NCBI GenBank assembly: GCA_046538485.1
Contig: JBKHIT010000009.1
Coordinates: 42,790 to 106,789 of the forward strand
Origin: Candidatus Brocadiia bacterium
Lineage (GTDB): Bacteria > Planctomycetota > Brocadiia > SM23-32
Reading direction: 5' to 3'
DNA length: 64,000 nucleotides
Under the pieces are notes generated by a model, which was given only the letters and a program-made list of their open reading frames with translations, made no database searches and was not told the origin of the DNA. The translations under genes and the position numbers were made by a program. Shown here piece after piece: positions 27,655-64,000 of this stretch; position 1 is the first letter of the stretch; each line of letters begins with the position of its first letter.

Positions 27655-27939
27655 TCAGGCTTCCATTCCACTCATTTCTTCCGGCAGGGCTTCGGTCTCA
27701 GCGCTACGACGGATAATGCGCAGAAGACGCCAGGATTTGTTCTTTGATAGGGGCCTTGTTTCTTCAATTTCTACCAGGTCGCCTTCATTGGCCTCGTTGT
27801 GCGCGTCATGCGCTGTGAGCGTGCTACGTTTCCGCAGATATTTCTTATAACGAGGGTGCTGGCGCAGATTTTCCACCCGGACTGTTATGGTTTTGTCCGG
27901 TTTGTTACTTTGAACAATTCCGCGCGCTCTTCTTTTCAT
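27655..27939 (-). CDS. rpsQ: 30S ribosomal protein S17
   Basis: DKTITV, HPRYKK, AHD, ETRPLSK.K.W. Confidence 0.97.
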   Translation of the reverse strand: MKRRARGIVQSNKPDKTITVRVENLRQHPRYKKYLRKRSTLTAHDAHNEANEGDLVEIEETRPLSKNKSWRLLRIIRRSAETEALPEEMSGMEA

Positions 27940-47348: not shown

Positions 47349-47420
47349 ATATGTAGTTTTCGAAATAAGGTTTTGAAGGCCCAGAACGCCGGGATCCAAT
47401 GGTGCGGTGAAAGGGGAAAC

Positions 47421-50400
47421 GTGTTCGAAGAGCCCAATCCTTCCCATGATAGAATACAGATAGGGATGTTTGGCAAACATCCCGCTTGGGACGGTTTCTT
47501 CAGTGTCGGCCTGGAATCCGATATTCTCGCGCGGGTTCGGAGTGATTCCCTCGTTCAGGCGATGAGTGAAAGTGTTCTATCTGACGTATGGGACAGCGAA
47601 GATGAAAATGTTGTGCAGGACATGTCGGATCGATTTTTCATCTGGGATAGACTGGCGGAGACAGTGGTGGGACTGGGTTGGCCATCAGAGGATTCTGAGG
47701 GGCAGCCGTTCCCTGTCTTTGTCTGCGTTGAGATTTTCGGGCAGGATCGTATGTTTACCGTGCCTATTCTCCAGCCTCACCTGCTGAAACTGCAGAAACA
47801 AATTAAGGCAGCAGAATCTCTCGCTCAGGTAAAATCTGCGCGAGAGAACGTCCTCTCCGGAGTGCGGCAAGCCGTCAGGGATCGGAACATTTCGGATATG
47901 ACCGCAAAACTTTTCGGCGAGACGGAGGCGATCGTCCATGTAGCAAAAAGTCTGGGTGAAGAAACCTCCGAAGAGCTCGAACGGGTATTTTACAAGATAG
48001 GTGAAGTAGGAGGACATTTTCTACCGGATGTTTATGGGGAAGCCGTGGAGAAAGGGATTCCTCCGGCTCCGGTTTCCCTGCGGCTTCCTCGACCGACGAA
48101 GAAGCCCTTCAATGCTGCCCGTATCTGGATTCAGTTTTTCCGATCCCAGATCGGGCAGACAGCTCCCGTACTCCTTCTGGCCCCTGTCAAAAAGCATTGG
48201 GTCCATGCCGTTCTTGGGGAAGCTAACGAAGAAGAACTGTATTACCCAGTGTCCGCCCTGGAGGAGATTCCACTCGTCACAGAAGTGACTTACGAGATGG
48301 GGGAATCTTTCCGGGCAGAAGTTAGAAAGAGAGTCCGCTCGGCTGAAAGCGAGAGGGATTTGCCGCTTTCAATCTTTGATGAAATTGATACGGAGGAACC
48401 AAAGAAGGGGCGTATTGGCGACGAAAAGCAAGTGGAAGAAAAAAAAACCGGCGGCTTGCGTCGTCTGGGTATCTGGTATGCACTGGCGGTTTTGGCCATT
48501 GTAATAACAATAGGGGCGATATATATCCGTTCCAACTTTTTCAGCGAAGAGTCCGAGCCGGGTTCGTTTCCGGAATGGCGAAATTTGTGCGAAGCAGACT
48601 GCAATTGGTTTGGTCAGTTCAGAGAAGAAGCAGAGGCCAGACTGGAGAACTGGGACCGGGACCCCTGGCTTGCGGAGAATATAGTGGGCCGTTTGAGGTT
48701 GGCGACGGAAGCGGATACTCAGTTGCGACCAAGACGGATTATAGACCGGCCGCAGGGCGATTCATGCAAGTGGAAGGATCGGGAGCAGATCCCGGAGAAG
48801 GCACGGGATCGTGTTTCTGAAGTGCGATGGGCCTGGGAAAGTGTGAAAGCAATCGGGGAGACTATCGAGTCGGCTTCGGAAGAATGGCCCCGGTTAAAAA
48901 CGCTGTCGAATTTCAGAAGGCGATGCGAAAAGCTGGGGTTGGAAAATACTGCAGGGCGGCTTCAGACCTTATTGGAAGCGTTGAGGCCATGCCCGGAGGC
49001 AGTGGGGGCGTTGGATAATCTCCTTAATTTTCCGCTTCCTCCGAAGAATGCGCCGGTAGAGACGGCCTCTTTGCTTGAGAAGCGATATGGTTTTCTAACG
49101 GATGGAGTTTTGGTTGATCTGATTACTTTCGGAGCGCGTGCCGCAGATAAAAAAGGGCCCCGGCAACTGGTTGAGTTTTTAAAGTCAGAGAGGGATGACC
49201 TGGCCGATGTCGAGACGCGAGCCATAGCAATGAAGGAGCGCATGGCTGAATTGAAACGGGAAAGCGGGGCGGAAGTAATGGCCCTCGTTGAGAAAGAGGT
49301 GGTCAAGGTTGATGAGGTCGCCAGACTGACCGAAGCGTTGAAGGAAATAGAAAGCAAACTGGGGACGATTCAGAACCGTTGGAAAGACGCTGTGAATCTG
49401 GCGGATAAAATGCCGATACCCCGGCCCGACCAGTGTTTGAAGGATGAACTCGGCCAGCCGAAAACCCTTTCGCAATTCGAGCAAAAAGTGGAAGGCTTGC
49501 TGGCGGTTTTAAACGAACTGAAGAAAAATCTGGAAGAATTGGGTAAGATTAGTAAAAAACTAAAAGAACGAAAGGAAGCTTCGGACATCGTCGATAAGTT
49601 TGCCAATTATTTTGAGGGACAGATGAAAGCACGGCCGGAGGAGGGGTTGGAGCGTTTCAGGGACAGAATACAGGAGACGATCCATCTCGGAGAGGAATTG
49701 GTAGGCTTCTTGGAAGGTGAGTGGCGCAATCCCGGGTTTGCTGGGGTGCTGTTCCTGAAAAGCGAAGATGTGTCTGTGGGGCCTGAGGGGCTCAATGCGT
49801 ATACCATCGAAGCGTGGTTGAAGCGAAAGAATGGCTATTACTGGTTGGAGGGGTTTCCGGCTACGAGACAACAATGGGAGAAGGATCTGGAAAAAACAGG
49901 CGATATGCTGAAAAAGGTGGCAAAGAATTTCGAATCCGGCGACAAGGAACTGAAGCAAAAATACGAACAGGTAAAAGAAGAATATGAAGGCTTGAGTAAG
50001 AAAATCACCCGGTTACCCCATGGCATTCGTGCAAACCGCAAGGATATTATGCCACTTGTGAAGCCCCTTAAAACCGACCTTGCGAAGATGCGTGAAAAGG
50101 TTCGGGGGCTGATGTGGTTGGAGCTTCAGAGAAGAGACGAAATCGTAGAGCGAAAGCCTTATGTTAATGAACAATGGAAGAGCCGGCGAAACGCTATCCT
50201 GGAAGAGTTTAAAACCAGTAAACCGATTAAACAGGAACAGTATAAACGTGTAAAAGAGCGAATTGAAAAACTAAAAACGCGCCTGAAACATGTGGCCGAT
50301 CAACTTCCTGCTCGCCGCCGCATGGAGTCAAAAGAGGACTGGCAGAAGAAGCTTGCTGGGATTTTGTTGGAATACCGGAAGAACCGCGTGGAAAGTTTTT

Positions 50401-51692
50401 TTAATAAGCATGTGCATTGGCAGGGGAATGTTCCGGGACCGGTTGAAAAGTATGAAGCTAAACTGATTGAGCTATCAAAAGGTTTGAAAAATGCGGCAGA
50501 TTCCATCGTTATTGTTGTTGGACTGGAGGAGAAACTTCAGGTGCCGGAGGCGAAGGGAGAAGCTACGTGGCGAAAGCAGCTGGCCAGTGCGGTCCAGCAG
50601 AGGAAACGAACCCTCGTGCAGGAATTAGTAGAGTTTGTTACGGAGAAGGTGAAACGGGGCCAGGAATTTTCACCGCAACAAACCAGAGAACGTGTATCAG
50701 CGCTGGCAGATGAATTTGAGAAGTGGCAGAAGGCGTTGGGGGCAAAGCTGAAAGCGGCACCGAAGACAGGCCCACACACAGTCGAGTGGGCCAACTGGGA
50801 ACAGGACCTGAGCAATTTTCCCAAACGTCTGCGCTACGTGTGGCGTGATGGGCAGGGTGAAGTAAGGCACGAACTGGCTTTCGAGCGGGTGGAGCCGAAG
50901 GAGGGGAAACCGGCCTACCTGTGTACCACGGAGGTCTCAGTGGGGTTGTTTGTGGATGTGATAGAGCAGGCCAAACAATGGGAAAACTTCCACGATCATC
51001 TACATAAAAATGATATCTGGATGGGCCCGAAGCCCTGGCGTTGGGCTGGAGAAAGCAAGAAGAAAATCCGGCCAGCTACGGGAAAGGAAAAAGAGGGGTG
51101 GCTCCCAATGGATATCGTGACGGTTCCGGCGAGCTGGAATCCCTACCCTGAGGCAGTGAAAATCGTACCCCCCGGTAAGGAGAGTCCGATCAACTACATT
51201 TCGGCGCAAGGTGCCCAGAACTTCGCCAGTTTGCTGGGATGTGATTTGCCGAAACCTTCCTGGTGGAAAGTGGCTTATGAGAGGGGAAAGACCGGGAAAA
51301 AAAACGTAGCCAGGAGATGGAATCTGCGGGATCAAACCTGTGATGAAATGAGAAAACACATCATTAGTGAACCTCCCTCTGTTCCCGAGATGCAGAAGTC
51401 CCTGCGTATATTCGAGCAAATGAGCCCGAAAAAGATATACCAATGGAATGACGGGACACTGTGGTTCGATCCGGTGGAATCCAGAGAGATTGCCCCTGTT
51501 TACCATCTTCGGGGAAACGTGGCCGAATTGGTAAAATCGGGAAGCGTATACTACGTGATGGGTGAGTCGGCGCTATCTCCCAGGTCTGGAAAACCAGAAA
51601 AGAAATATCAGGTGAAGGAAAACGCCGCCTATATGGATGTCGGATTCCGTCTCGGCTTGCCTGCTGGAGGCGATTCGGCGACGCAGCGATGA
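47421..51692 (+). CDS. Large membrane protein: TagF-like N-domain, one TM helix, long helical/coiled-coil region, C-terminal FGE-sulfatase-like domain
   Basis: GMFGKHPAWDGF and WPSEDSEGQPFP (TagF-like); TM IWYALAVLAIVITIGAIYI; TEVS, PINYIS..GA..FA..LG.DLP...W, HLRGNVAE, DVGFRL (FGE-like); GTG start after AAGGGG. Confidence 0.72.
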   Translation: MFEEPNPSHDRIQIGMFGKHPAWDGFFSVGLESDILARVRSDSLVQAMSESVLSDVWDSEDENVVQDMSDRFFIWDRLAETVVGLGWPSEDSEGQPFPVFVCVEIFGQDRMFTVPILQPHLLKLQKQIKAAESLAQVKSARENVLSGVRQAVRDRNISDMTAKLFGETEAIVHVAKSLGEETSEELERVFYKIGEVGGHFLPDVYGEAVEKGIPPAPVSLRLPRPTKKPFNAARIWIQFFRSQIGQTAPVLLLAPVKKHWVHAVLGEANEEELYYPVSALEEIPLVTEVTYEMGESFRAEVRKRVRSAESERDLPLSIFDEIDTEEPKKGRIGDEKQVEEKKTGGLRRLGIWYALAVLAIVITIGAIYIRSNFFSEESEPGSFPEWRNLCEADCNWFGQFREEAEARLENWDRDPWLAENIVGRLRLATEADTQLRPRRIIDRPQGDSCKWKDREQIPEKARDRVSEVRWAWESVKAIGETIESASEEWPRLKTLSNFRRRCEKLGLENTAGRLQTLLEALRPCPEAVGALDNLLNFPLPPKNAPVETASLLEKRYGFLTDGVLVDLITFGARAADKKGPRQLVEFLKSERDDLADVETRAIAMKERMAELKRESGAEVMALVEKEVVKVDEVARLTEALKEIESKLGTIQNRWKDAVNLADKMPIPRPDQCLKDELGQPKTLSQFEQKVEGLLAVLNELKKNLEELGKISKKLKERKEASDIVDKFANYFEGQMKARPEEGLERFRDRIQETIHLGEELVGFLEGEWRNPGFAGVLFLKSEDVSVGPEGLNAYTIEAWLKRKNGYYWLEGFPATRQQWEKDLEKTGDMLKKVAKNFESGDKELKQKYEQVKEEYEGLSKKITRLPHGIRANRKDIMPLVKPLKTDLAKMREKVRGLMWLELQRRDEIVERKPYVNEQWKSRRNAILEEFKTSKPIKQEQYKRVKERIEKLKTRLKHVADQLPARRRMESKEDWQKKLAGILLEYRKNRVESFFNKHVHWQGNVPGPVEKYEAKLIELSKGLKNAADSIVIVVGLEEKLQVPEAKGEATWRKQLASAVQQRKRTLVQELVEFVTEKVKRGQEFSPQQTRERVSALADEFEKWQKALGAKLKAAPKTGPHTVEWANWEQDLSNFPKRLRYVWRDGQGEVRHELAFERVEPKEGKPAYLCTTEVSVGLFVDVIEQAKQWENFHDHLHKNDIWMGPKPWRWAGESKKKIRPATGKEKEGWLPMDIVTVPASWNPYPEAVKIVPPGKESPINYISAQGAQNFASLLGCDLPKPSWWKVAYERGKTGKKNVARRWNLRDQTCDEMRKHIISEPPSVPEMQKSLRIFEQMSPKKIYQWNDGTLWFDPVESREIAPVYHLRGNVAELVKSGSVYYVMGESALSPRSGKPEKKYQVKENAAYMDVGFRLGLPAGGDSATQR

Positions 51693-52031: not shown

Positions 52032-52967
52032 TTAGTTATCAGAGGGCGCCACGGTGACCAGTTTGTTGAAGCGGAGATCGATGTATTTCAAGTTTTTCAG
52101 CTGCGGGTATTCGGCGAGTGTTTTCTTCAGCATGGCAATTTTCTGATCGTCGGGAGGATCTCTGTATTTCTCACTTTCCGGCAGGGCCAGGCCGTCGATC
52201 TGTTGATAGGCTTCAAGGGTTCCCCATTTTATGGGCGGACCGTTGAGGGTCTGTATGATGATGTCAGGTTCCGAATCGTATGTTCCCACGTCGGTCACGT
52301 CGATATGTTTCATCGGTATTTGCGCTACGATTGAATTTTTGCCCAGCAGTTGTGTCAGGCGAGCCCCAACCGCCAGCGCTGTGCCATTCCATGCTCGATC
52401 CGAAGGGGGATGTTGAGTGAGACCCTTGTGAATGATGACAGGCGGTGTGTGTTGTTTCCAGGCTTCAGGGGGGCGATAGAGACGTTTCGGCAACCAGTAC
52501 CCATCCGGATCGACCAGGTAACGTTTGTCATTAATTTCGACAATTCCAGCGGGTTTTCGGAATACGAGGTTGACACTGAGTCGGTTGGGCAAAACTCGCT
52601 GCACTCGTTTTACATCGACGACCCAGGGCGCTTCGCGCAGTTTTTGTTGGGCGCGGTAGCAGAGTTGTTTATCGAATATGGTAGATCCTTCGGTCACCGT
52701 GCGCAGTTTGTCCCGAAGTTCTTGAAGCATTTCGATTTTTCGCACGCATGGCGGACGTGACTGAAAAGTTATGGTCGATGGGCTGAGGACGAATTCAGGT
52801 CGTTTGTTGAGGGCACTGGCGGCCGACCGAATACCCAGACTTGTCCCCAGACCTATCAGTGTAACGATTCCGAGGGGCAGAACAATTCGGAGCAGACCGA
52901 ATCGTGCGGCGTGGAGGGCTGTGTCTTTTTTGCTACTGGATTTGCTGGATTTTTTCTTTTTTGCCAT
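52032..52967 (-). CDS. ftsQ: Cell division protein FtsQ/DivIB-like
   Basis: Basic N-terminus, one TM, PWVVDVKRVQRVLPNRL.V....RKP, C-terminal YIDLRF; directly after ddl. Confidence 0.75.
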   Translation of the reverse strand: MAKKKKSSKSSSKKDTALHAARFGLLRIVLPLGIVTLIGLGTSLGIRSAASALNKRPEFVLSPSTITFQSRPPCVRKIEMLQELRDKLRTVTEGSTIFDKQLCYRAQQKLREAPWVVDVKRVQRVLPNRLSVNLVFRKPAGIVEINDKRYLVDPDGYWLPKRLYRPPEAWKQHTPPVIIHKGLTQHPPSDRAWNGTALAVGARLTQLLGKNSIVAQIPMKHIDVTDVGTYDSEPDIIIQTLNGPPIKWGTLEAYQQIDGLALPESEKYRDPPDDQKIAMLKKTLAEYPQLKNLKYIDLRFNKLVTVAPSDN

Positions 52968-52982
52968 TTTTATTTGTTTTTA

Positions 52983-53972
52983 TCAAGCGGTTCGTTTTTT
53001 TCGTTTGACGTGTGTTTTCGGCTGATGCTGTGCGTCATGGAATGCCATTTCGGCAATTCGTTCGCAAAGATCGTTAAACTCATAACCGGCGTGGCTGGCG
53101 GCCATCGGCAGGAGGCTTCTTTCTGTAAATCCGGGAATTGTGTTGACTTCCAGAACGTACAGCCGGGCATCATAGCCATAAATTATGTCTGTACGGGCAA
53201 AATGCCGACATCCCAGGGCGTCCCAGGACCTTTTCGCGATATCGAGAGTTTTGCGGTAAATGCTTTCCAGTAGAGCGACAGGAAGGATATAGTGGGTGTT
53301 TTCATCCTTGTATTTAGCGTCGTAATCGAAGAACGACCGGTCGCTTCGGATCTCGATGGCCGGCAGTGGCTCTCCATCCAAAATGCCGACAGTGAGTTCG
53401 CGTCCATGGATGTGCTGTTCGAGAAGGATCGGGCCGGCCGGGTCGTGGTCTGAAGCTTCGCGGCTCGCGGCGATTGCTTCTGCGAGATCTTCTTCCGACC
53501 TGACGATACTGACTCCGATGCTGGAACCTCCGGTGGTGGGTTTACAAACCAGAGGGTAGCCGATGTTGACGGCCAGTTTTTCGGCTTCGTCTTGATCTAC
53601 CGGTGGCTGTAGGACGGTGTAGTCGGGTGTTGGGACGGCATTTCGGACGAACGCGCGTTTTGAAGCGAGTTTGTCCATGCCGATCCGGCTGGCTTCCGAA
53701 GCGCTGCCGGTGTACGGGATGCCGCGTTCTTCGAGCAGGGTCTGGATGCCTCCATCTTCCCCGAATTTGCCATGGAGGGCAATGAAAGCCAAATCGGGAT
53801 TGATGTTCTGGAGCCCGTTGAGTTTCCTATCCCTGACATCAAAAGGGATGACCTGGTGTCCACGTTGTTCAAGCGCTTTGGCAATAGCGCGACCGGATTT
53901 GAAGGAAACCGCTCGTTCGTTGCTGACACCGCCCATAAGAACTGCAATTTTTAGTTCTTTTTTCAATTTCAT
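52983..53972 (-). CDS. ddl: D-alanine--D-alanine ligase
   Basis: VLMGGVSNERAVS, LHGKFGEDG, GSSIG, DYDAKY, EVNTIPG; AAAGGAG SD. Confidence 0.96.
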   Translation of the reverse strand: MKLKKELKIAVLMGGVSNERAVSFKSGRAIAKALEQRGHQVIPFDVRDRKLNGLQNINPDLAFIALHGKFGEDGGIQTLLEERGIPYTGSASEASRIGMDKLASKRAFVRNAVPTPDYTVLQPPVDQDEAEKLAVNIGYPLVCKPTTGGSSIGVSIVRSEEDLAEAIAASREASDHDPAGPILLEQHIHGRELTVGILDGEPLPAIEIRSDRSFFDYDAKYKDENTHYILPVALLESIYRKTLDIAKRSWDALGCRHFARTDIIYGYDARLYVLEVNTIPGFTERSLLPMAASHAGYEFNDLCERIAEMAFHDAQHQPKTHVKRKKRTA

Positions 53973-53998
53973 ATCGTGTATGAGTTCTCCTTTATAGA

Positions 53999-54880
53999 TT
54001 AAGCGACTTTTGACTGACCGGGCCAATGTTTCAATTCCAATTCAAGCTCAACTCCAAAACTTTCGCGCACTATATTTTTTACAGTTTCGATAAGTTGGAT
54101 CACATCCCTGCTGCTTGCTTGTGCCATGTTGCAAATAAAATTTGCGTGAACCGGGGAAATTTCGGCTCCTCCCACGCGCGAGCCTTTCAGACCACAAAGA
54201 TCAATCAACTTTCCCGCTGAGCGTGTCGGCGGGTTCTTAAAAACACAACCTGCGCTCGGATTCCCCGTTGGGTGGCGTTTTCCTTTTTTCTGGGCGTTTT
54301 GGGCCACAGCACGCGCGATTAACTCGGGGCTCCGAGGCTCAAGTTCCAGTTCCGCTTCGGTGATAATAAAATCTCTGACGTCACAGGTTCGGTAGCCAAA
54401 ATTCATTTCTGAAGGTGAGAGTTCCTGGTATTCCCCATCGGGTGTCATAGTCCAGACTCTGGAAATACGCTCGGAAATATCGGATCCCCAGGCGCCGGCA
54501 TTGCCTGCGATTGCTCCTCCGAGTGTGCCGGGGATACCTGCAAGGAACTCCAGGCCCCCGAGTGAATCTTTCTGTGCGCTGCTCAGAAGTTTTCCGAGAC
54601 GGACGCCCGCGCCGACTCGCAGGGTGTTTTTTCCGCTTCTTTTAATCCAGGAGAAACCCGGTGAGCACATATGCAGAACAGCGAAGGGCAGGGGACCGTC
54701 ATCGATGAGAAGGTTTGAACCCCCACCGAGTACACGGAAGGAGATGGAACGGTCCCGGATAGCTTCCAGTGCCTGGCGCAGTTGCTGTTCGTCCGCGGGA
54801 CGTACGTAGAGACGGGGTTTCCCCCCGATGCGAAAAGTCGTATGTTTTTTAAGCGGTGGATTGTGGATTTTTTTTGCCAT
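53999..54880 (-). CDS. murB: UDP-N-acetylenolpyruvoylglucosamine reductase
   Basis: HTTFRIGG, LGGGSNLL, GIPGTLGGA..NAGA, SAGCVFKNP, HANFI. Confidence 0.96.
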   Translation of the reverse strand: MAKKIHNPPLKKHTTFRIGGKPRLYVRPADEQQLRQALEAIRDRSISFRVLGGGSNLLIDDGPLPFAVLHMCSPGFSWIKRSGKNTLRVGAGVRLGKLLSSAQKDSLGGLEFLAGIPGTLGGAIAGNAGAWGSDISERISRVWTMTPDGEYQELSPSEMNFGYRTCDVRDFIITEAELELEPRSPELIARAVAQNAQKKGKRHPTGNPSAGCVFKNPPTRSAGKLIDLCGLKGSRVGGAEISPVHANFICNMAQASSRDVIQLIETVKNIVRESFGVELELELKHWPGQSKVA

Positions 54881-54902
54881 ATGTTCTGTGTTGGTATGAC
54901 TG

Positions 54903-56333
54903 TTACGCGGCGACCTGACGGCGGCCTTTTTCTTCGATTCGCGGGACGATGTTCCGGGCGACTTGCCAGATATTTCCGGCGCCCATTACCAGCACGACGT
55001 CTTCTGGAACGACGTCACCCACGATGATTTCTTCAATATCTTCAAATTCCGGGACATAGTGAGCGCACATGCCTTTGTGGTTCATGAGTCTCACGAGATC
55101 CATTGCGCTTACCGAACGGCGGTCTTCTTCGGTATCGCGGGCTGCGTAGATATCTGTGATTAGCGTGACCCACGATTCGCGGAGTGCTTCGGAGAAATCG
55201 TCAAGCATCGCTCGGGTTCGGGAGTATTGATGGGGTTGGAAAATGCAGAAGACCCTTCGTTTGGGGAAACGTTGTTGGGCGGCAGCAAGACTGGCTTTTA
55301 TCTCACTGGGATGATGTGCATAGTCGCTAAGAACCGCCACATTCCAGGGCTCCCCGAGGAGCTGGAGTCGGCGAGCTGCGCCTTCGAAGGTGCTCACGTG
55401 CTCACGAATATCATCGAAATCCATGCCGGCCTGATGGCAGACTCCGATAGCAGCGAGCGCATTGTAGACATTGTGACTTCCGTACAGTTTAATTGAGAAG
55501 CGGCCCTGGTTTTCGCCCTTGAACATGAGATCGAAATTCGTGTGCTTTTTGGCACGCCAGATTCTTTCCGCGCGGTAATCTGTCCCCTCCGTATCGACCG
55601 AAAAACTGAGGACATTGCAATCGGCAGAATTTCCCAGACCGTCGCTGTTTTTATCGTCGGCATTGATCAATAAGAAACCATCGGGATGAATTTGCTCCGC
55701 GAAGTCAGAGAAAGCCTGTCGGATGTCCCAAAGATCGTAGTAGTAGTCGGTATGTTCGAGGTCAACGTTTGTAATCACGCCGATATGGGGTTCAAGATAG
55801 AGGAAGGATCGTCGATACTCACACGCCTCAGCGACGAAGTAATTTCCGATGCCGTAATGCGAACCGCCCCCCAGTTGGGGCACGTCTGCACCGATGAGGT
55901 ACGAAGGATCGAGCCCACCGTTCTGCATTGTATAAGCGACCATGGCAGAGGTGGTGCTTTTCCCGTGAGAGCCCGTGACGGCGAGGCCGGGTTTGGCATC
56001 CATCAGTTCTCCAAGCAATTCCGGGTACTTGACGACCTCAACACCGAGTCGATGAGCTTCGACGAGCTCGGGATTGTCTTCCTGTATCGCCTGGCTGACG
56101 ATGATGCGATTCGTGTTGGACTGGAAATGGGCCGTGTCCTGGTCCAGATCAATAGTGATACCTCTTCGTGTGAGGTCGTCAATCGCAGGCGATGCCTGGA
56201 CGTCTGAACCCGTTATCTGAATCCCTCTTTCTGATGCATAACGAGCGAGTGCCCGCATACCTGTACCAAGAATCCCGACGAAATGCCAGTGTTCCTGGGA
56301 AAAGTCAGCTTTACCATTTTGCGACGTCTGCAT
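54903..56333 (-). CDS. murC: UDP-N-acetylmuramate--L-alanine ligase
   Basis: HFVGI.G.GM, GSHGKSTT, EACEY, DYAHHPSE, FQPHQYSRT, MGAG; alternative start 56348. Confidence 0.95.
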   Translation of the reverse strand: MQTSQNGKADFSQEHWHFVGILGTGMRALARYASERGIQITGSDVQASPAIDDLTRRGITIDLDQDTAHFQSNTNRIIVSQAIQEDNPELVEAHRLGVEVVKYPELLGELMDAKPGLAVTGSHGKSTTSAMVAYTMQNGGLDPSYLIGADVPQLGGGSHYGIGNYFVAEACEYRRSFLYLEPHIGVITNVDLEHTDYYYDLWDIRQAFSDFAEQIHPDGFLLINADDKNSDGLGNSADCNVLSFSVDTEGTDYRAERIWRAKKHTNFDLMFKGENQGRFSIKLYGSHNVYNALAAIGVCHQAGMDFDDIREHVSTFEGAARRLQLLGEPWNVAVLSDYAHHPSEIKASLAAAQQRFPKRRVFCIFQPHQYSRTRAMLDDFSEALRESWVTLITDIYAARDTEEDRRSVSAMDLVRLMNHKGMCAHYVPEFEDIEEIIVGDVVPEDVVLVMGAGNIWQVARNIVPRIEEKGRRQVAA

Positions 56334-56344
56334 TTTCTCCCCTT

Positions 56345-57574
56345 TCATGCGGCTTTGGATACGGTAACTGTTTTTGCTGAGGTCAACGCGTGGATTTTCC
56401 TGACGGCAGTATGTGTTTCCTGTTCTTGGGATGTCACGTGGGACATCTCCACGATCCGCCCTGCAACCCGAAAAGCGGCCAGCGGCCGGGCTATCGCACG
56501 GGCAGACCGACTCATTTTCGCGAGAGTTTGCGGGCTATTTGTGAGCTCCGCTATCAATCCAGCCAGACTGTGTACAGTAAAGTTGCTCTGATCCCTGACC
56601 AAAGCTGCTCCAGCGTCGCGAACGGCCCCGGCGTTCGCGTGCTGATGATTTTCGGTGGCATGAGGGTAGGGAACCAGAATCGATGGGCGACCGGTGGCAA
56701 GAAGTTCAGCAATTGTTGAGGCACCGGCACGTGCCAGCACGAAGTCGGCTGCTGCATAGGCTTCCCCAATTCGATGCATGAATGCGACAGGGCAGTAGGT
56801 GATGCCTGTCGGGGGCATTGTTCTGAGCGCATCCTCGAAATTATTAGGTCCTGTCAGATGAAGTACCTGGAGATTCCCCGACGGGATCAGATCGGAATTT
56901 GCCAGCACTTCCAGCGCTCCTGCTATCAGAAGATTGAGGGCAAATGCGCCCTGTGATCCTCCCATTACCAGCAACGTGGTAAGGTTTGGGTGGAGTCCCA
57001 GACGATGACGGGCCTTTATTGGATTGGCCTCCAAAATCTCACGTCGAATGGGATTCCCGCTCAGTAGGATCGAGCGGGCATTCAGGCGATCAGCCGTTAC
57101 CTCCCATTGGACCTGAACACAATCTACGAGGGGCGCAAGAACTCGTACTACCCGTCCCGGTATAGCATTGCCCTCGAACAACATCGTTCGAATACCAAGC
57201 AGCCGGGCAAGGATAAGCGGTGCCACGCAGCTGTATCCCCCCAGCCCAACGACGACCTGAGGTCGAAAACTGCGAAATACGTCCAGCGCTTTCCCCATTG
57301 CACCGAGACCAGTCCAGGCGAAGCGCGGTTTGTTCAGCAAGCCCCGCCAGCGCGCCGCCGGCATTTCTATAGTGGTGAATCCGTCGATGGCTTTACTACA
57401 AGGGTGGTTGGTATCGCGATGTGTTATCATGAACTTGCACTGCGCTTCGGGGGACATCTCTTTGATGGCTTTTGCCACAGCGGCGCCAGGCATCAAGTGC
57501 CCGCCCGTGCCGCCGCCCGCAAAGAGCACCCGCAGGTTCTCTTCCGTGCCGAAGTATTCATCAAGATTGATCAA
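56345..57574 (-). CDS. murG: Lipid II GlcNAc transferase
   Basis: AGGGTGGH, GLGGY, GNPIR, GGSQGA, RAGAST..E, HQ..NA. Confidence 0.95.
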   Translation of the reverse strand: MINLDEYFGTEENLRVLFAGGGTGGHLMPGAAVAKAIKEMSPEAQCKFMITHRDTNHPCSKAIDGFTTIEMPAARWRGLLNKPRFAWTGLGAMGKALDVFRSFRPQVVVGLGGYSCVAPLILARLLGIRTMLFEGNAIPGRVVRVLAPLVDCVQVQWEVTADRLNARSILLSGNPIRREILEANPIKARHRLGLHPNLTTLLVMGGSQGAFALNLLIAGALEVLANSDLIPSGNLQVLHLTGPNNFEDALRTMPPTGITYCPVAFMHRIGEAYAAADFVLARAGASTIAELLATGRPSILVPYPHATENHQHANAGAVRDAGAALVRDQSNFTVHSLAGLIAELTNSPQTLAKMSRSARAIARPLAAFRVAGRIVEMSHVTSQEQETHTAVRKIHALTSAKTVTVSKAA

Positions 57575-57586
57575 TGCTTGTTCCTT

Positions 57587-58870
57587 TCACTTGCGAAATT
57601 TCTTGCTGACTGTCGTGGCTGTCTGCCGTAATGCCCCGGTTAATTTCGTTTCGTAATCGGGGAGATCCTGCTGCCAGGGACGAAGTTCGAATTCTTCTGG
57701 CGTCTCCTGCGAGCGTGCAATATTGACCAGAATGCCTGATGCCCAGAGTGTTACGAATAAGGAGGAGCCTCCGGCGCTCACGAAAGGGAGGCTCAATCCT
57801 TTTGTGGGAACACAGCCCGTCACGACAGCTATATGAATTATGGCTTGAAGGCCGATAAGAGCGGTGATGCCTGTCGCCAGAATGGTACCGAATACGGAAC
57901 GGCTATTGATTGCGACTGCAAAACCATCCCACATGAACCAGAGAAACGCGCCTATGATGGCTACCGCACCGAGAAAACCGAACTGTTCTGCGATTGTGCT
58001 GAAGATAAAATCGTTGCGTGCCGCCGGCAGAAAACCCATAGCTCCGGCTCCAAGACCCTTTCCAAATATCCCCCCGGATCCTGTGCCAATGAGTGATTGA
58101 ACCAGTTGGTAACCGGTGCCGCGGGCGTTTTCCCAGGGGTGCAGAAAACCTGTGATACGGCGCATTCGATATTCACTTCCCAGAACCAAATGTTGGATCA
58201 GAGGCAGGCATGATGCAGTAAGCAGGATAATATATATAACGCGCGTGCCGGAGAGCAGAAGAACGGTTAGGGTGAGCGCGCCAATAAGACATGCCGTGCC
58301 AAAATCCGGTTCGCCAAGGACGAGTGCGGCGGTTGTCCCGCCGACGACTATTGGCACGCAGAAACCGGGCACGAAAGCTTTTATTTGTGACGTTCCCGAT
58401 TTGCTGCTACGAATGGTTATTTGCCGTTCGCACCAGGCGGCCAGCCAGATGATAAGGGCGACCTTGGCGAATTCGGAAGGTTGAAACCCGAGTGAATGAC
58501 CGATTCGAATCCACCGGCGAGCCCCATTAATTTCTGATCCGATTCCCGGGATGAGAACGGCAACCAGCAGTGCCAGCGTCAGGCCGAACAGGGGAAGGCT
58601 GTGCCGGCGCCACCATTGGTAATTCATCGCGCAACCCAGCACGAAGGCGACAGATCCCACTGACAACCACGCGAGCCGGCGGAGGAGGACACTTGCGAAA
58701 TCGGCGTCGGGCGAAGTGTTGCCTTCGGAACTGGCCACCATGACAAGGCCAAGAAGGGCCAGTCCCGCAATCAGTGTGCCCAATCGATAGCTCGGACGGA
58801 ACCACGCACTGACGGCCTCGGTGGGCTTCGTGGCTCCACTATTTGCTTTTGTGAGCGTCGTCTCTGACAT
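57587..58870 (-). CDS. ftsW: SEDS family peptidoglycan polymerase FtsW
   Basis: NGARRWI, FQPSEFAK, EPDFGT, GYQL.QS, DFIF..IAE, PTKGLSLPFVS.GGSS; ATG 58870. Confidence 0.92.
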   Translation of the reverse strand: MSETTLTKANSGATKPTEAVSAWFRPSYRLGTLIAGLALLGLVMVASSEGNTSPDADFASVLLRRLAWLSVGSVAFVLGCAMNYQWWRRHSLPLFGLTLALLVAVLIPGIGSEINGARRWIRIGHSLGFQPSEFAKVALIIWLAAWCERQITIRSSKSGTSQIKAFVPGFCVPIVVGGTTAALVLGEPDFGTACLIGALTLTVLLLSGTRVIYIILLTASCLPLIQHLVLGSEYRMRRITGFLHPWENARGTGYQLVQSLIGTGSGGIFGKGLGAGAMGFLPAARNDFIFSTIAEQFGFLGAVAIIGAFLWFMWDGFAVAINSRSVFGTILATGITALIGLQAIIHIAVVTGCVPTKGLSLPFVSAGGSSLFVTLWASGILVNIARSQETPEEFELRPWQQDLPDYETKLTGALRQTATTVSKKFRK

Positions 58871-58881
58871 TTGCCAAACCG

Positions 58882-59928
58882 TCACAGGAGAATGGGAACA
58901 GCTGCGAGTAAACCGCCTACAAAACAAAAACGAAGCACGATTCTTTTTTCAGGCCAGCCTTTTTTTTGAAAGATGTGATGAAGCGGAGCGATCGGCAGAA
59001 TGCGCCGACCTGTTGCTTTGAACCAGAGTACCTGCAGGACTGAAGAGCTGAATTCCACGAGGAATAAGAAGGCGAAGAGAGGCAGTAATATTTCGGCATG
59101 CAAAAGCACGGCGGCCAGGCCAAAACTGCCTCCGATTGCGAGCGATCCGGTATCGCCCATGAAAACTTTCGCGGGGTGCCAGTTGAAGCACAGGAAACCG
59201 GCGACTCCTCCGGCCAGGGCCCCGCAAAAGATAATCGCTTCGGCACCGCTATCAGCGGGCGACACTGTCTGGCAAGCAAGCAGAATAAACGGCAGGAAAG
59301 CGGCGAGGGCCAATCCGCCGGCCAGTCCGTCCAATCCGTCGGTTACGTTGACCGCATTGCTCATTGTCGCGACTGCGAGGGCCACCCAAATTGCCGCGAG
59401 GATGGCGCCACCGGCTCCAATCAGCCACCCGAAAGTAGGCCAGGGGAGGCTGCTGGCAATATTTGGGTTTCCGAAGCGATACCAGATGTAACCAGCGACA
59501 GCTCCGATGAAGCCCTGCAGAATGAGCTTATGGCGGACTTTTAAGCCCCGCTCGCGGTGTGCGGTGGCTTGCATTTTCATCCAGTCGTCGATAAAACCCA
59601 TCGATCCGAGAGCGAGATAAACGCCAATCAGAAGCCAGAACGATAGGCTGCCGAAATTCCCCCAGACCAAACAGGTCAGCAGGGTAGCGATTGCGATGAT
59701 AATGCCGCCCATCGTGGGCGTGCCGCTTTTCGCAGCGATCTGGTTCCGGAGTTGTTCGTCTTCGATAGGAGTTTTCTCTGTTTGTTCACCGAATTCATTT
59801 TGTCGAAGCCAGCGTATCACAGGCACTGCAAGGACAAAGGCGATTGTGAAAGACGTGCAAAAAGCCAGGAGTGCCCTCATTTCCAGGCGAGCCAAGAGGT
59901 GGTTAAGCGGATCTATCCAAAGAAGCAT
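58882..59928 (-). CDS. mraY: Phospho-N-acetylmuramoyl-pentapeptide transferase
   Basis: GTPTMGG, GFIDD, NAVNVTDGLDG, VFMGDTGS, APLHH. Confidence 0.96.
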   Translation of the reverse strand: MLLWIDPLNHLLARLEMRALLAFCTSFTIAFVLAVPVIRWLRQNEFGEQTEKTPIEDEQLRNQIAAKSGTPTMGGIIIAIATLLTCLVWGNFGSLSFWLLIGVYLALGSMGFIDDWMKMQATAHRERGLKVRHKLILQGFIGAVAGYIWYRFGNPNIASSLPWPTFGWLIGAGGAILAAIWVALAVATMSNAVNVTDGLDGLAGGLALAAFLPFILLACQTVSPADSGAEAIIFCGALAGGVAGFLCFNWHPAKVFMGDTGSLAIGGSFGLAAVLLHAEILLPLFAFLFLVEFSSSVLQVLWFKATGRRILPIAPLHHIFQKKGWPEKRIVLRFCFVGGLLAAVPILL

Positions 59929-59929
59929 T

Positions 59930-61342
59930 TCAGGCTGCGGCCTCCTTTTTGCCGGAGCTCAAGAACTGTTCAATAGCATTCACAATTTTCTCAAGTTCGA
60001 GGGCGCGCGATCCTTTTACCAGGACCACGTCGCCGGGGGCGACGAGATGAGCCACGAAGAGCCATGCTTTTTCAGGGGCTTCAACGTGCAGAGCTTTCTG
60101 ATCCGTATCGGCGAGGTCGCGCCAGCCAGCCACAAGGTCCCTGGCGTAGGACCCCACGGCGACGAGGACATCAAGCCGGGTAAGTGCCAGAACGCGGCCG
60201 AGTCTGTGATGAAGCTCTTTGGATTTTTCGCCCAGTTCCAGCATATCTCCACAGACTACGATTCGTCTTCTGGGAGCGGGCCGCTGCAGGAAAGATTCCA
60301 GAGCGGCTTTCATGGCCGTTGGATTCGAGTTGTAGCAATCGAGAATGAACTGGATACCGGCCACTTCACGTTTTTCTGACCGCAGATCCGGCAACTGGAA
60401 TCCGGCCAGAGCCTGGATTGCGTCGGATGTCCCAGCACCTGCCCAGCGTGACAGGCAAATAGCCGCTGCCGCGTTCAGCACGTTATGCCGGCCGGGGACG
60501 TTGAGACGAAATTCGCTCCCGCGGGCTCGGAAGAATTGTTTCTCACCTTCTGATCGCACGTCGACCGGCTGCATGTCCGCGGTGCGATGCAGGCCGAAGG
60601 TCTTAACCTCCCCGCTGTAACGGCCTGCCAACGAGCGACATAATGGATCGTCCGCGTTGAGAACAAGACAACCGCCGGGTTTAATGTGTGGGATTAACTC
60701 GGCTTTGGCCTCTTGGACGCCTTGTTTGCTCCCGAGCCCTTCGAGATGGCTTTTTCCAATGCAGGTGATTAATCCGGCGTTGGGGCGAGCAATCGCCGCA
60801 AGTTCATCGATTTCGCCCGGGTGATTTGTGCCGAGTTCCAGAACGACGAAATCCGTTGTTTGGCTGGCGGCCAGCAGAGAAAGGGATACGCCAATACGAT
60901 TGTTGAAACTTTTTGGTGCTGCTGAGCATGACCCGGTTAAGGCGAGAATGGACGCGGTCATGTTTTTAACTGTCGATTTACCACAACTCCCGGTGACCGC
61001 AAGAATTTTGCCTTCGAGGCGGCTCCGGTGCCAGGACGCCAAATCCATCAAGGCTTGTTGTGAATTCGCGACAAGGATCAAAGCGGTGCCATGAGGAAAG
61101 TCCCAGCTTTTGTCGCGGCGTTCCGTGATGACAATTGATGCACCGGATTTGAGGGCGTCTTCCACAAAATCGTGTCCGTCATGATTGGAACCTTTCAATG
61201 CAAGGAAAGCTTCCACGGGGTTTATCGTTCGACTGTCAACGGATATTCCTGATGCAAATACCTCTGGGCGTCCTTTCATGATATGACCGCCGCATGCTTC
61301 ACAGATGTCTTCGGCGGTAAATTTCGCGGATTCGTAGATCAT
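59930..61342 (-). CDS. murF: UDP-MurNAc-tripeptide--D-Ala-D-Ala ligase
   Basis: DSR, VTGSCGKST, SFNN.IG, ELGTNHPGEI, D.YNSNP, GDMLELG, KGSR. Confidence 0.95.
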   Translation of the reverse strand: MIYESAKFTAEDICEACGGHIMKGRPEVFASGISVDSRTINPVEAFLALKGSNHDGHDFVEDALKSGASIVITERRDKSWDFPHGTALILVANSQQALMDLASWHRSRLEGKILAVTGSCGKSTVKNMTASILALTGSCSAAPKSFNNRIGVSLSLLAASQTTDFVVLELGTNHPGEIDELAAIARPNAGLITCIGKSHLEGLGSKQGVQEAKAELIPHIKPGGCLVLNADDPLCRSLAGRYSGEVKTFGLHRTADMQPVDVRSEGEKQFFRARGSEFRLNVPGRHNVLNAAAAICLSRWAGAGTSDAIQALAGFQLPDLRSEKREVAGIQFILDCYNSNPTAMKAALESFLQRPAPRRRIVVCGDMLELGEKSKELHHRLGRVLALTRLDVLVAVGSYARDLVAGWRDLADTDQKALHVEAPEKAWLFVAHLVAPGDVVLVKGSRALELEKIVNAIEQFLSSGKKEAAA

Positions 61343-61382
61343 TTCCTTCCCCTGTGAGTCAAAATAGATGGCATGCGGACGG

Positions 61383-62891
61383 TCACGCTGATTTTCTTTT
61401 CCTTCTCGTTTTTGCCTCGAGTATGTCTCTGGTCACGTCGCGATCATCGAACGGAATTTGACGGTTGCCGAGAATCTGATGTTGTTCACAACCGCGACCG
61501 CAGAGGGCAATAAGATCGTTGTTCCCGGCCATGTTGATCGCTTGTTGAATGGCTTTTCGGCGGTCGGGTTCGGCTGTATATTCTTCTGCGGAACTCTGCA
61601 CCCCGGTCAGAATGTCGTCAATAATATCTTCGGTCTTCTCACTCCGGCTGTTATCGGCGGTGACAATGGTGTAATCAGACAGTTTGGTGGCTATATTGCC
61701 CATGAGAGGCCGTTTTTGAGTTTCGCGATCGCCGCCGCACCCAAAAACGCAGATGAGTCGACCGTCGGTGAGGGGCCGGAGGGTTCGGAGCACTTTTCCC
61801 AGGGCATTGGGAGTATGTGCGTAGTCGACAACCACGACGGGTTCGCCTTCTGCCGCGATTTTTTCAAGGCGTCCCCCAACGCCCGGGAAGTTTGCAACCG
61901 CCATCTGGACCGCTTCAGCGGGGACGCCCAGGAGGAAACCGGCCGTCATGGCTGCGAGGATGTTTTCGCAGTTGTAATCTCCCACGAGTTTGGTCCCCAG
62001 TTTCAAAGCATTGAGCGGAGTGCGGACCAGCATGTTCATTCCGTTGACACTGGCTCTGGTATCAAGGAGCTGAAAATCGGCAAGAGTTTCTCGCCCGTAC
62101 GTCAATGCATTCCCATTTGTAGCCTTTTGATATCGTTCGGCGACGGGCGAATCGGCGTTTAGAACCGCCACTGATTCGGCCGGGAGCTGTTCGAAAAGAA
62201 TCTGCTTTGCCTGGATGTAGGCTTCTTTTGAACCATGGAAGTCGAGATGGTCTTCCGTGACGTTTGTGAGAACCGCCACACCAAAAGGAATATGCGCGGT
62301 TCTTTGGTGGACAAGAGCGTGGCTGCTGACTTCCATGACCATGTGAGTGACTCCGGCCGCTCTTGCCTCAGCAAGCATGGAATGAAGAGCAAGGGGATGG
62401 GGTGTGGTTTGGTCGGCCGGTAGCACTTTATCTCCGAGCCGATATTCGAGCGTCCCGAGCGTCCCGGTTTTGTGGCCGGATTGTTCGAGGATTGCTCTAA
62501 TCAAAGCCGTGGTAGTCGTTTTGCCGTCGGTCCCGGTGACACCAACCATATGGATTTTGTGGGCGGGGTTTCCGTAAAAGCGGCTGGCCAGCGCACTGAG
62601 GGCGAATCGAGTGTCGGGAACCTGTAAAATGGGAACTTCGGTGGGGTCAGCTGGAGGTTCTTCCACAACAAGGGCAGAGGCGCCCCGGCGCAGGGCGTCG
62701 GGAATATATTCGTGTCCGTCGGTCTGTTCGCCGTTGACGGCGACAAACAGGTTTCCAGGCTGTATTGTGCGTGAATCATCGGTGAGTCCGTCGATCACCA
62801 GGTTGTTCCAGGCGGCGCGCTGCTCAACGGCAAGATCAGCTGCGAGTTCCGCAAGCGAAATCTTATTTGGGTTTGTTTTGTGATTTTTCAT
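61383..62891 (-). CDS. murE: UDP-MurNAc-dipeptide--diamino acid ligase
   Basis: VTGTDGKTT, TTP, MEVSSH, DHLDFH, DYAHTP, FGCGGDR, DNSR. Confidence 0.95.
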   Translation of the reverse strand: MKNHKTNPNKISLAELAADLAVEQRAAWNNLVIDGLTDDSRTIQPGNLFVAVNGEQTDGHEYIPDALRRGASALVVEEPPADPTEVPILQVPDTRFALSALASRFYGNPAHKIHMVGVTGTDGKTTTTALIRAILEQSGHKTGTLGTLEYRLGDKVLPADQTTPHPLALHSMLAEARAAGVTHMVMEVSSHALVHQRTAHIPFGVAVLTNVTEDHLDFHGSKEAYIQAKQILFEQLPAESVAVLNADSPVAERYQKATNGNALTYGRETLADFQLLDTRASVNGMNMLVRTPLNALKLGTKLVGDYNCENILAAMTAGFLLGVPAEAVQMAVANFPGVGGRLEKIAAEGEPVVVVDYAHTPNALGKVLRTLRPLTDGRLICVFGCGGDRETQKRPLMGNIATKLSDYTIVTADNSRSEKTEDIIDDILTGVQSSAEEYTAEPDRRKAIQQAINMAGNNDLIALCGRGCEQHQILGNRQIPFDDRDVTRDILEAKTRRKRKSA

Positions 62892-64000
62892 TCAGATGCC
62901 TCCGCGATTGTAGAGCTGGGTTTAGGCGGGATCTCGAGATACCGGAGGGTTTGCCGAAGTATTTCCCGAACGGCTGGCCCGGCGACGGTACCTCCGTAAT
63001 GACTACCTTTTGAAGGGGCTTGCAGGGAGACGAGGACGACGAGTCTCGGGGATTTAGCGGGAGCGAGCCCGATAAAAGATGCAAGGTAACGGTCTTTGCT
63101 GTAGCCCCGTCCGTCTTTTCTGAGGAGTGAGGCAGTGCCAGTCTTACCGGCAACCTTATAGTCGTCGAGTTTGAGGCGACGGCCGGTACCTTCGGATACA
63201 ACGTGCTCCAGAACCTCAAGTACCTGCCAGGCGGCGCGTCGGCTAACCGCCTGCCGAATAACTTCCCTGTCCTGAAACTCGTACACGCACTGATTGTTGT
63301 CGGTTTTCACAATTTTACGGACAATATACGGACGAAGCAGCACCCCGTCGTTTGCAAGTGCAACATAGGCGCATGCTACCGAGAGAGGCGTGGCAGCCAT
63401 CTCCTGGCCGAAGGACACGCTGATGAGACTATGTTTGTTCCACCTTTTGACCGGGCGGATAATGCCGCTAACCTCACCGGGAAGGTGGATGCCGAGCGGA
63501 GAGTCGAAACCGAATCTCCTCAGACCTGTGTGAAACTTGCTGGAGCCGAGCTTAAGGCCGATTTGAGCGGCACCGATATTGCTCGAGTGAATTATGATCT
63601 GGCGAACCGTCAGGTTCTCGTAAGAGTGGACATCGTGCACGGTGCGGGATCCGACTCTCCAGCTCCCTCTATGGCAATCGAACTCGCTGCTGGGGGTGAT
63701 AATTTGTTTATCCAGAGCGATAGCTGCGGTGATCGGTTTCATGATAGAACCGAACTCGTAGGCATCGGTTATGATCCGATTGCGACGGGCAGCGGGGACC
63801 GTTTGAGCCGGGTTGCTGGGGTTGAATTCGGGCCAGTTCACCATGGCCAGAACGGCGGAGGTGCGGGCATCCAGCACGAGCGCCCATGCGGATTCGGGCT
63901 CATGCTTATTGACCTGATGAGCGAGAGCCTGCCGCGCGATATTCTGGATCCAGGAATCAATAGTGAGATAAATGTCATGTCCGTTCTTGGCTTTGCGGAG
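62888..64000 (-). CDS. ftsI: Class B penicillin-binding protein (FtsI/PBP3-like), 5' part outside window
   Basis: SxxK (GSIMKP), SxN (SSNIG), KTG (GKTGTA); directly upstream of murE. Confidence 0.9.
   Translation of the reverse strand, partial: LRKAKNGHDIYLTIDSWIQNIARQALAHQVNKHEPESAWALVLDARTSAVLAMVNWPEFNPSNPAQTVPAARRNRIITDAYEFGSIMKPITAAIALDKQIITPSSEFDCHRGSWRVGSRTVHDVHSYENLTVRQIIIHSSNIGAAQIGLKLGSSKFHTGLRRFGFDSPLGIHLPGEVSGIIRPVKRWNKHSLISVSFGQEMAATPLSVACAYVALANDGVLLRPYIVRKIVKTDNNQCVYEFQDREVIRQAVSRRAAWQVLEVLEHVVSEGTGRRLKLDDYKVAGKTGTASLLRKDGRGYSKDRYLASFIGLAPAKSPRLVVLVSLQAPSKGSHYGGTVAGPAVREILRQTLRYLEIPPKPSSTIAEASE

Follow-up and report, generated by a model that had tools for sequence, protein, structure and literature searches.

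A common basic, alanine-ended C-terminal motif on the cytoplasmic peptidoglycan-precursor enzymes of one uncultured Planctomycetota family

We analysed a stretch of 64,000 nucleotides, here called the window, from a Candidatus Brocadiia bacterium (assembly GCA_046538485.1, contig JBKHIT010000009.1, positions 42,790 to 106,789), together with the rest of its genome and with related genomes. In the uncultured Planctomycetota family of this genome, all nine cytoplasmic enzymes dedicated to peptidoglycan precursors (MurA, MurB, MurC, MurD, MurE, MurF, MurG, Ddl and Alr) share one short linear motif at their extreme C-terminus. We are nearly certain that the motif was gained on nine separate genes at at least four loci, and that selection at the protein level keeps it. 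The family lies in a class with Brocadia-like relatives, and the nearest named records are metagenome-assembled genomes labelled Candidatus Brocadiaceae, with an MraY identity of about 55%. The shared tail resembles an address label, and what it marks its bearers for is most likely destruction. Degrons and docking peptides at C-termini are familiar from single proteins; here one short motif was gained convergently by every soluble enzyme of a pathway and has persisted in about 20 genera. Recognition peptides at a C-terminus are a known kind of element, and the pathway-wide, convergently acquired version is new to us. Our searches of open-access papers gave none that reports a C-terminal motif common to Mur or other peptidoglycan-precursor enzymes, in planctomycetes or elsewhere.

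The consensus is rich in Arg and Lys at positions -6 to -3, with Ala, Ser, Thr or Val at -2 and Ala at -1. Among 193 tails from family members, Ala is the last residue in 172, a residue of the A/S/T/V set stands at -2 in 172, and R or K is most frequent at -6 to -3. Tails that end in Ala and also contain at least one K/R at -6 to -2 make up 156 of the 193 (26/26 for MurE, 15/19 for Ddl). The motif lies on extensions of 7-40 residues past the conserved catalytic folds.

Six of the nine enzymes are encoded in the window, in a minus-strand division and cell wall (dcw) cluster in its 3' half that consists of ftsI, murE, murF, mraY, ftsW, murG, murC, murB, ddl and an open reading frame (ORF) in the position of ftsQ. 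The NCBIfam family model stops short of the C-terminus in each of the six. The product of murE (61383-62891) ends ...TRRKRKSA; NF001126 covers residues 13-494 of 502, and the tail, residues 495-502 (61386-61409), is followed by a TGA stop. MurF (59930-61342) ends ...SSGKKEAAA, with a tail of residues 457-470 (59933-59974) after a match to TIGR01143 over residues 35-456 of 470. For MurG (56345-57574), ending ...TVSKAA, the extension comprises residues 372-409 (56348-56461) and TIGR01133 matches residues 13-371 of 409 with 234.6 bits, slightly below its cut-off of 250.25. MurC (54903-56348) is matched by TIGR01082 over residues 21-467 of 481 and closes with ...EEKGRRQVAA, the tail being residues 468-481 (54906-54947). 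The tail of MurB (53999-54880), residues 287-293 (54002-54022), ends ...PGQSKVA beyond a match to NF010480 over residues 6-286 of 293. Ddl (52983-54026) ends ...THVKRKKRTA, with residues 330-347 (52986-53039) lying past the match to NF002378 over residues 22-329 of 347. The NCBIfam cut-offs are exceeded by MurE, MurF, MurC, MurB, Ddl and MraY, while MurG and FtsW fall narrowly below theirs.

These endings, read on the minus-strand ORFs, are exactly those transcribed in an earlier sequence-only reading of the window, which had proposed a coordinated degradation signal. It had also stated that the membrane and periplasmic members of the cluster lack the terminal Ala, and this is correct. FtsI (62888-64000, cut by the window end, with a Pfam Transpeptidase domain) ends ...AEASE, MraY (58882-59928, TIGR00445) ends ...VPILL, FtsW (57587-58927, TIGR02614 with 329.9 bits, slightly below the cut-off of 337.5) ends ...KKFRK, and the ftsQ-position ORF (52032-52967) ends ...APSDN. 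These four, all on the minus strand, are the untagged controls in what follows. Ala ends seven of the 62 ORF-genes in the window: the six enzymes and ribosomal protein S17 (RpsQ, 27655-27939), which the same reading had named as the sole other case.

The assembly comprises 5.19 Mb in 143 contigs, with 54% G+C, and is 88% complete. Genes were obtained with our own simple ORF picker (ORFs of at least 60 residues, scored by codon usage), whose choice of start is immaterial here, as C-termini are set by stop codons alone. Genome-wide, 181 of 3394 ORF-genes (5.3%) end in Ala and 20 of 3394 in Ala-Ala; the commonest last residue is Glu, with 14.6%. The background frequency of terminal Ala, which had been suggested as a check, is low. 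At p = 0.0533 the probability that all six window enzymes end in Ala is 2.3e-8, for a set that was chosen after the fact. Since the unlinked genes and the relatives follow the same rule, chance is removed as an explanation despite this post hoc choice.

The other three enzymes are encoded away from the cluster, and all three score over their family cut-offs. MurD, on contig C127, ends ...LGLADAECA, and its family model stops at residue 462 of 497. Alr (C134, 14142-15362) ends ...TSQRREVA on an extension of about 40 residues beyond the racemase domain, the model stopping at 366 of 406. MurA, at a separate locus on C134, ends ...LPFKRAAS, that is, basic residues and Ala-Ala followed by a final Ser, and its model stops at 409 of 438. 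In total, eight of the nine cytoplasmic precursor enzymes end in Ala (binomial P = 5.6e-10). An inspection of the unlinked enzymes, as the earlier reading advised, thus adds Alr and MurD to the set; MurA does not conform in this genome (-KRAAS), whose subclade has AAS or TAS, and conforms in 12/19 family relatives, with the form -RR[SPT]A. The same reading had spoken of the whole lipid II pathway, which is too wide: the membrane steps are untagged, and so are DapF (...GEWPE), UppS (...GNSGK) and a GlmM-like protein (...EIPPV). In the 88%-complete genome GlmU and GlmS gave no match over the cut-off, only weak partial ones, and neither MurI (TIGR00067) nor FtsZ (TIGR00065) was found.

To follow the tails in relatives we used 30 genomes from within the family, which represent 19 further genera, together with a single genome from the order and 29 from the class. 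The dcw regions were taken from all 57 genomes with an MraY match. The family counts rest on 28 relatives, with an MraY 45-58% identical. Orthologues were assigned by phmmer on stop-to-stop ORFs, and the family counts exclude the genome under study; they come from related genomes and so are not independent events. In the family, orthologues of the nine enzymes end in Ala in 172/193 cases, compared with 4/95 for the control positions. In the other families of the class the corresponding numbers are 19/165 for the enzymes and 0/106 for the controls. The tails are thus conserved in orthologues within one family.

The individual enzymes each have their own version of the ending. All family MurE orthologues end in Ala (26/26), as [KR][KR]x-A, and so do all of MurF (26/26, with Ala-Ala in 19) and of MurC (21/21, all Ala-Ala and mostly KGRRQIAA). 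MurG ends in Ala-Ala in 19 of 22, all three exceptions coming from one genus. Alr ends in Ala in 22/23, mostly as [KR][KR]G[AV]A and with Ala-Ala in 18/23, MurB in 18/20, Ddl in 15/19 with the typical form RRx[ST]A, and MurD in 13/17. Among the controls a terminal Ala is found in FtsI in 2/26, MraY in 0/27, FtsW in 2/25 and the ftsQ-position ORF in 0/17. The motif is retained down to an MraY identity of 45-58%, while the residues that precede it vary.

Outside the family the trait fades. In the single genome of the same order, from the sister family, the tails are limited to MurE, MurF and MurG. In a sample of 20 other families of the phylum, Ala ends MurE in 3/13, MurF in 6/18, MurG in 4/17, MurC in 0/11, MurB in 1/10, Ddl in 2/6 and FtsW in 6/19, a scattered and uncoordinated pattern. 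The tail trait is therefore confined to one family and is not general to planctomycetes without FtsZ.

The specificity within a genome was examined with 749 kb of a distant family member (G003, 65% G+C), in which 55 of 544 genes (10.1%) end in Ala. Both partners of a reciprocal-best pair between the two genomes end in Ala in 10 of 339 pairs, where 2.8 are expected by chance. The ten are MurB, MurC, MurE, MurG, Alr, ClpX and four pairs without the basic motif; MurF, Ddl and MurD of this relative are tailed too, but lie outside the reciprocal-best and coverage filter. Among 17 neighbour families at the loci examined that are unrelated to peptidoglycan and present in at least six family genomes, the Ala-ended fraction is at most 0.17 in 16 and 0.38 in one. 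A broader tagged set in the genome under study was sought and dismissed, as Pfam searches with 27 other proteins that have basic or Ala-Ala tails returned a mixed bag (an ABC transporter, GH92, a sulfatase, transposases, MoxR, LacI and others) in which only Alr and ClpX are noteworthy. The tag looks specific to the pathway plus ClpX. Among ORFs outside the window, C101:13642-15054, C23:34090-34701 and C132:16862-17344 have a C-terminal peptide of their own in common, PT[VL]RSL[VI]GAA; one of them has DDE transposase domains and one has no Pfam match, and the three are probably copies or fragments of one insertion-sequence family.

An alignment of 30 Alr sequences shows how such a tail is built. 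Family members are 406-417 residues long, against 371-387 in the others, and the extension opens with a conserved part, continues as a variable linker that is acidic or rich in Pro, and closes with an invariant end. An AlphaFold2 model of Alr has a mean predicted local distance difference test (pLDDT) score of 89.2, with residues 392-406 below 50, an average of about 90 over the remainder, and no helix predicted in the last 15 residues. According to this model the end of the Alr tail is unstructured and solvent-accessible. The tails of the other eight enzymes are probably accessible as well, judging by their position beyond the ends of the family models.

The first part of the Alr extension has features of its own. 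The family-specific segment at residues ~367-391 (C134:14142-15362) opens the extension with the consensus NG.VV.ETP.RS.VP, and in the AlphaFold2 model, at moderate confidence, a strand (371-375) and a helix (384-389) pack on the enzyme. The extension would therefore be more than a linker.

ClpX (C67:155474-156745), which also has this kind of end, finishes with ...EKHRKSA. Of 19 family relatives, 18 have the end ...RKRKGA (the form of most), ...HRKSA or ...KRKSA, and one has ...RKRA; in other families of the class the end is ...KYKKTA, ...KKRDIA, ...MRKSA or ...GESAA. The ClpX tail thus resembles the tails of the peptidoglycan enzymes but spans the whole class, while theirs are restricted to the family. 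It is not special to the class either: among diverse near-full-length ClpX representatives from a library of 1.84 billion proteins, 26 of 68 end in Ala and 6 of 68 also have at least two K/R beside it. This frequency is far above any proteome background and suggests that ClpX has a widespread, possibly self-recognising C-terminal tail. ClpX contains the zinc finger and AAA domains, with GYVG, RKH and IGF seen in alignments to solved ClpX; these loops look canonical and show no sign of a co-adapted specificity. A clpP gene lies immediately upstream of clpX, the two together spanning C67:155474-157363, and a second clpP is present in the genome.

The genome's own transfer-messenger RNA (tmRNA) encodes the tag GKPKHAERTPAYAMAA, with the end -AYAMAA, a comparison that the earlier reading had also called for. 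According to aragorn, tmRNA tags end in -[ML]AA in 11 of 13 cases in the family and in 12 of 13 in the rest of the class. The tags reported for family genomes G001 and G015 are odd and do not end in -MAA, which probably reflects mis-set resume codons and not real differences. Taken together, the checks proposed in the sequence-only reading that can be computed all support a real, selected feature.

Some features of the cluster lie outside the question of the tails. murD is absent from its usual place between mraY and ftsW (57587-59928), being on contig C127, and the mraY and ftsW frames overlap by 46 nt if the longest ORFs are taken. The ftsQ-position ORF, which has no family match in NCBIfam or Pfam, is conserved in 17 family relatives and has a Lys-rich N-terminus followed by a hydrophobic stretch. 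Divergent from the adjoining cluster, a protein of 1439 residues is encoded on the plus strand at 47373-51692; it has no NCBIfam match, and in Pfam only a sub-threshold FGE-sulfatase-like match over residues 1182-1312 (E = 7e-4).

What the motif does is less clear than its existence. The reading that we favour, as plausible though short of probable, is that of a shared C-terminal degron for an AAA+ protease, most likely ClpXP. It draws on resemblance: to the ssrA end and the MuA tag, to the rules for tags in E. coli, to the control of Mur enzymes by Clp proteases in Firmicutes, and on the presence of the machinery. The axial channel of ClpX would bind the free end, Ala or Ala-Ala, in the manner of the ssrA tag, and the basic cluster may tune the affinity or contact either an adaptor or the N-domain of ClpX. 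A single protease could in this way remove or titrate all soluble enzymes of the lipid II pathway at once, for example when growth stops or between division events, and would spare the membrane steps MraY, FtsW and FtsI. ClpX, with its like tail, might compete with these enzymes or be a substrate that limits itself. If FtsH or ClpAP read the tails, this would be indistinguishable here from reading by ClpXP. The coordinated turnover and cell-cycle switch proposed in the sequence-only reading would have the same basis in resemblance, and a docking or assembly tag would fit the data too.

A fuller version of the degron reading, which we offer more tentatively, is a regulon by proteolysis. Nine independent gains of a tail would have placed one degron on nine peptidoglycan enzymes in a family in which FtsZ was not found, so that ClpXP could switch the lipid II supply off and on as a unit, and the tailed ClpX would be built in as a competitor or as a substrate that limits itself. 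Should the tails be degrons, the supply of wall precursors is controlled post-translationally and as a block, which would give a handle on the timing of wall synthesis in planctomycetes without FtsZ.

Several points weigh against a degron. A single Ala, preceded by Ser, Thr or Val, closes half of the tails (MurE -KSA, Ddl -RTA, MurD -ECA), and MurA has a final Ser (-RAAS) in the subclade to which this genome belongs. In the E. coli screen of C-terminal tags, as excerpted from PMC10862746, Gly or Ser before Ala-Ala gives weak tags, which bears on the Alr form -RGAA, and Arg is depleted at the last two positions. No adaptor was found, and the 88%-complete genome gave no SspB (PF04386). For the cell, a degron that acts constitutively on each of nine essential enzymes would be expensive, unless it is masked or works only under certain conditions. 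ClpX is universal, so that a ClpX degron alone fails to explain the restriction to one family. The like tail on ClpX also fits a shared docking site, and with Ala at the end of 26/68 diverse ClpX proteins it is a general ClpX trait with no special link to the family.

The tail could instead be a docking or assembly tag, that is, a peptide ligand of one hub or membrane-embedded partner that brings the soluble Mur enzymes together with Ddl and Alr where lipid II is made. We regard this as possible, if somewhat unlikely. A folded domain, a variable acidic or Pro-rich linker and an invariant end peptide, as seen in the Alr alignment and its disordered end, are typical of docking motifs. The motif is found on exactly the enzymes of one pathway, as a metabolon predicts, and Mur enzymes have been proposed to form complexes (PMC10214165, in part). 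The restriction to one family suits a lineage-specific receptor better than the universal ClpX, and an architecture like that of the FtsZ peptide could matter in a cell without FtsZ, which was not found in the 88%-complete genome. However, no candidate receptor emerged: among neighbour families, which were clustered and not annotated, no extra conserved gene with an obvious peptide-binding domain appeared, either within the dcw cluster or next to alr, murA or murD. Docking also leaves unexplained both the like tail on ClpX across the whole class and the resemblance to ssrA. A docking tag would point to a physical Mur metabolon organised around a hub. Under either reading, degron or docking tag, the motif serves as a simple peptide bait and as a sequence marker of the lineage.

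It is improbable that the tails act by electrostatic membrane association, in which polybasic ends keep soluble enzymes close to the anionic inner membrane face, the site at which MraY and MurG act. The prevalence of Arg and Lys at -6 to -3 among the 193 tails agrees with such a role, as does the fact that MurG is a peripheral membrane enzyme. However, the best conserved positions are the terminal Ala (172/193) and then the small residue at -2, and lipid binding needs neither. By reading, the tails lack the hydrophobic face of amphipathic helices of the MinD or FtsA type, the residues at -6 to -1 being mostly R, K, Q, E, S, T and A. The tails of MurF, MurG and MurD often have few basic residues or none, and Alr, Ddl and MurA, which are early enzymes, have no known need for a position at the membrane.

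Finally, the tails could be functionless in themselves and arise from operon packing, with ribosome-binding sites or stop contexts falling within the ends of upstream genes, from composition driven by G+C or by chance. One point for this is MurF, where the gene end (59930-59950), AAA AAG GAG GCC GCA GCC TGA, contains the Shine-Dalgarno-like AAGGAGG 10 nt before the mraY start; the mraY ATG lies one base past the murF stop, and the last codon is GCC in 25/26 family relatives, unlike in the other enzymes. The basic part of the MurF tail may thus double as a ribosome-binding site. MurF is also the only tail that a downstream ribosome-binding site overlaps: a distance of 40 nt separates the MurE tail from murF downstream, and the sites of murC, murB and ddl follow the stops. 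The terminal Ala codons vary, with all four GCN codons used in seven of the nine enzymes and GCT and GCC only in Alr. From codon variety and the junctions we reject the idea that translational coupling, or overlap with a ribosome-binding site, gave rise to the tails, although it may have contributed at MurF. A high G+C content could also favour such ends, and the 65% G+C relative has, besides its 10.1% of Ala ends, many Arg ends; the controls from the same genomes rule out composition as the cause. A by-product is very improbable given that the motif is also present on the unlinked alr, murA and murD, that the neighbours unrelated to peptidoglycan and the membrane dcw genes of the same genomes lack the pattern (4/95), and that P = 5.6e-10 was obtained in a genome of 54% G+C. 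Mimicry of the DAP-D-Ala-D-Ala end of the stem peptide (DAP, diaminopimelic acid) by [KR]-x-Ala-Ala was considered and is unlikely too, since the tails consist of L-amino acids and many have a single Ala.

The motif can be compared with several known systems, of which the ssrA tag is the first. It is an unstructured extreme C-terminus with Ala-Ala and a free carboxylate, which some of the tails resemble, and the genome's own tmRNA tag has this end. An Ala-Ala end of the ssrA type is present on MurF, MurG and MurC here and on Alr in 18/23 family relatives, and absent from MurE, MurB, Ddl, MurD and the Alr of this genome, all with a single Ala, and from MurA (-AAS). Unlike the ssrA tag, the tails are encoded in the genes and not added during translation, and they have Arg or Lys in front of the end rather than Leu or Met. 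In the E. coli screen of C-terminal pentapeptides, according to the excerpt of PMC10862746, Ala-Ala ended 91% of the top 100 tags, a net charge of 0 to +2 was favoured, and the best tag was FKLVA.

Five classes of ClpX degron are distinguished in the excerpted text of PMC12723719, in which ssrA represents C-motif 1 and the MuA tag, ...RRKKAI, C-motif 2; our pattern for C-motif 2 was drawn from the MuA sequence given there. Judged by their residues, the tails follow this MuA-like pattern, with a basic cluster in the last 6-7 residues beside a small or hydrophobic end. The wider consensus of the class belongs to the general background on ClpX substrates. MurE -RRKRKSA and Ddl -KRKKRTA are very close to RRKKAI, both having a basic cluster and then Ala near the free C-terminus. 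MuA differs in the Ile after the Ala, where the last residue here is Ala itself, and in being one phage protein and not a pathway.

Peptidoglycan-precursor enzymes are known as Clp substrates in Firmicutes. The MurA (MurAA) of Bacillus and Listeria is degraded by ClpCP under the control of ReoM and PrkA (PMC7286690, in part), and a ClpP trap in S. aureus caught MurE, MurC, FemA, FemB and PBP2 (PMC9753991, in part). These cases concern one gatekeeper with dedicated adaptors, or proteomic hits without a shared tag, and the excerpts of the two papers describe no pathway-wide C-terminal motif.

The two remaining comparisons come from general background. LpxC is turned over by FtsH through a non-polar C-terminal tail, and so offers a committed enzyme of an envelope precursor with a C-terminal degradation signal that ends in Ala; it differs from the present case in being a single enzyme, with a hydrophobic and not a basic tail and a different protease. 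The C-terminal peptide of FtsZ docks onto FtsA and ZipA via a disordered linker. Here the likeness is in the architecture, a folded domain followed by a disordered linker and a conserved C-terminal peptide that is read by partners. FtsZ, however, is one protein with many partners, whereas in this family many proteins carry the peptide and presumably one reader recognises it.

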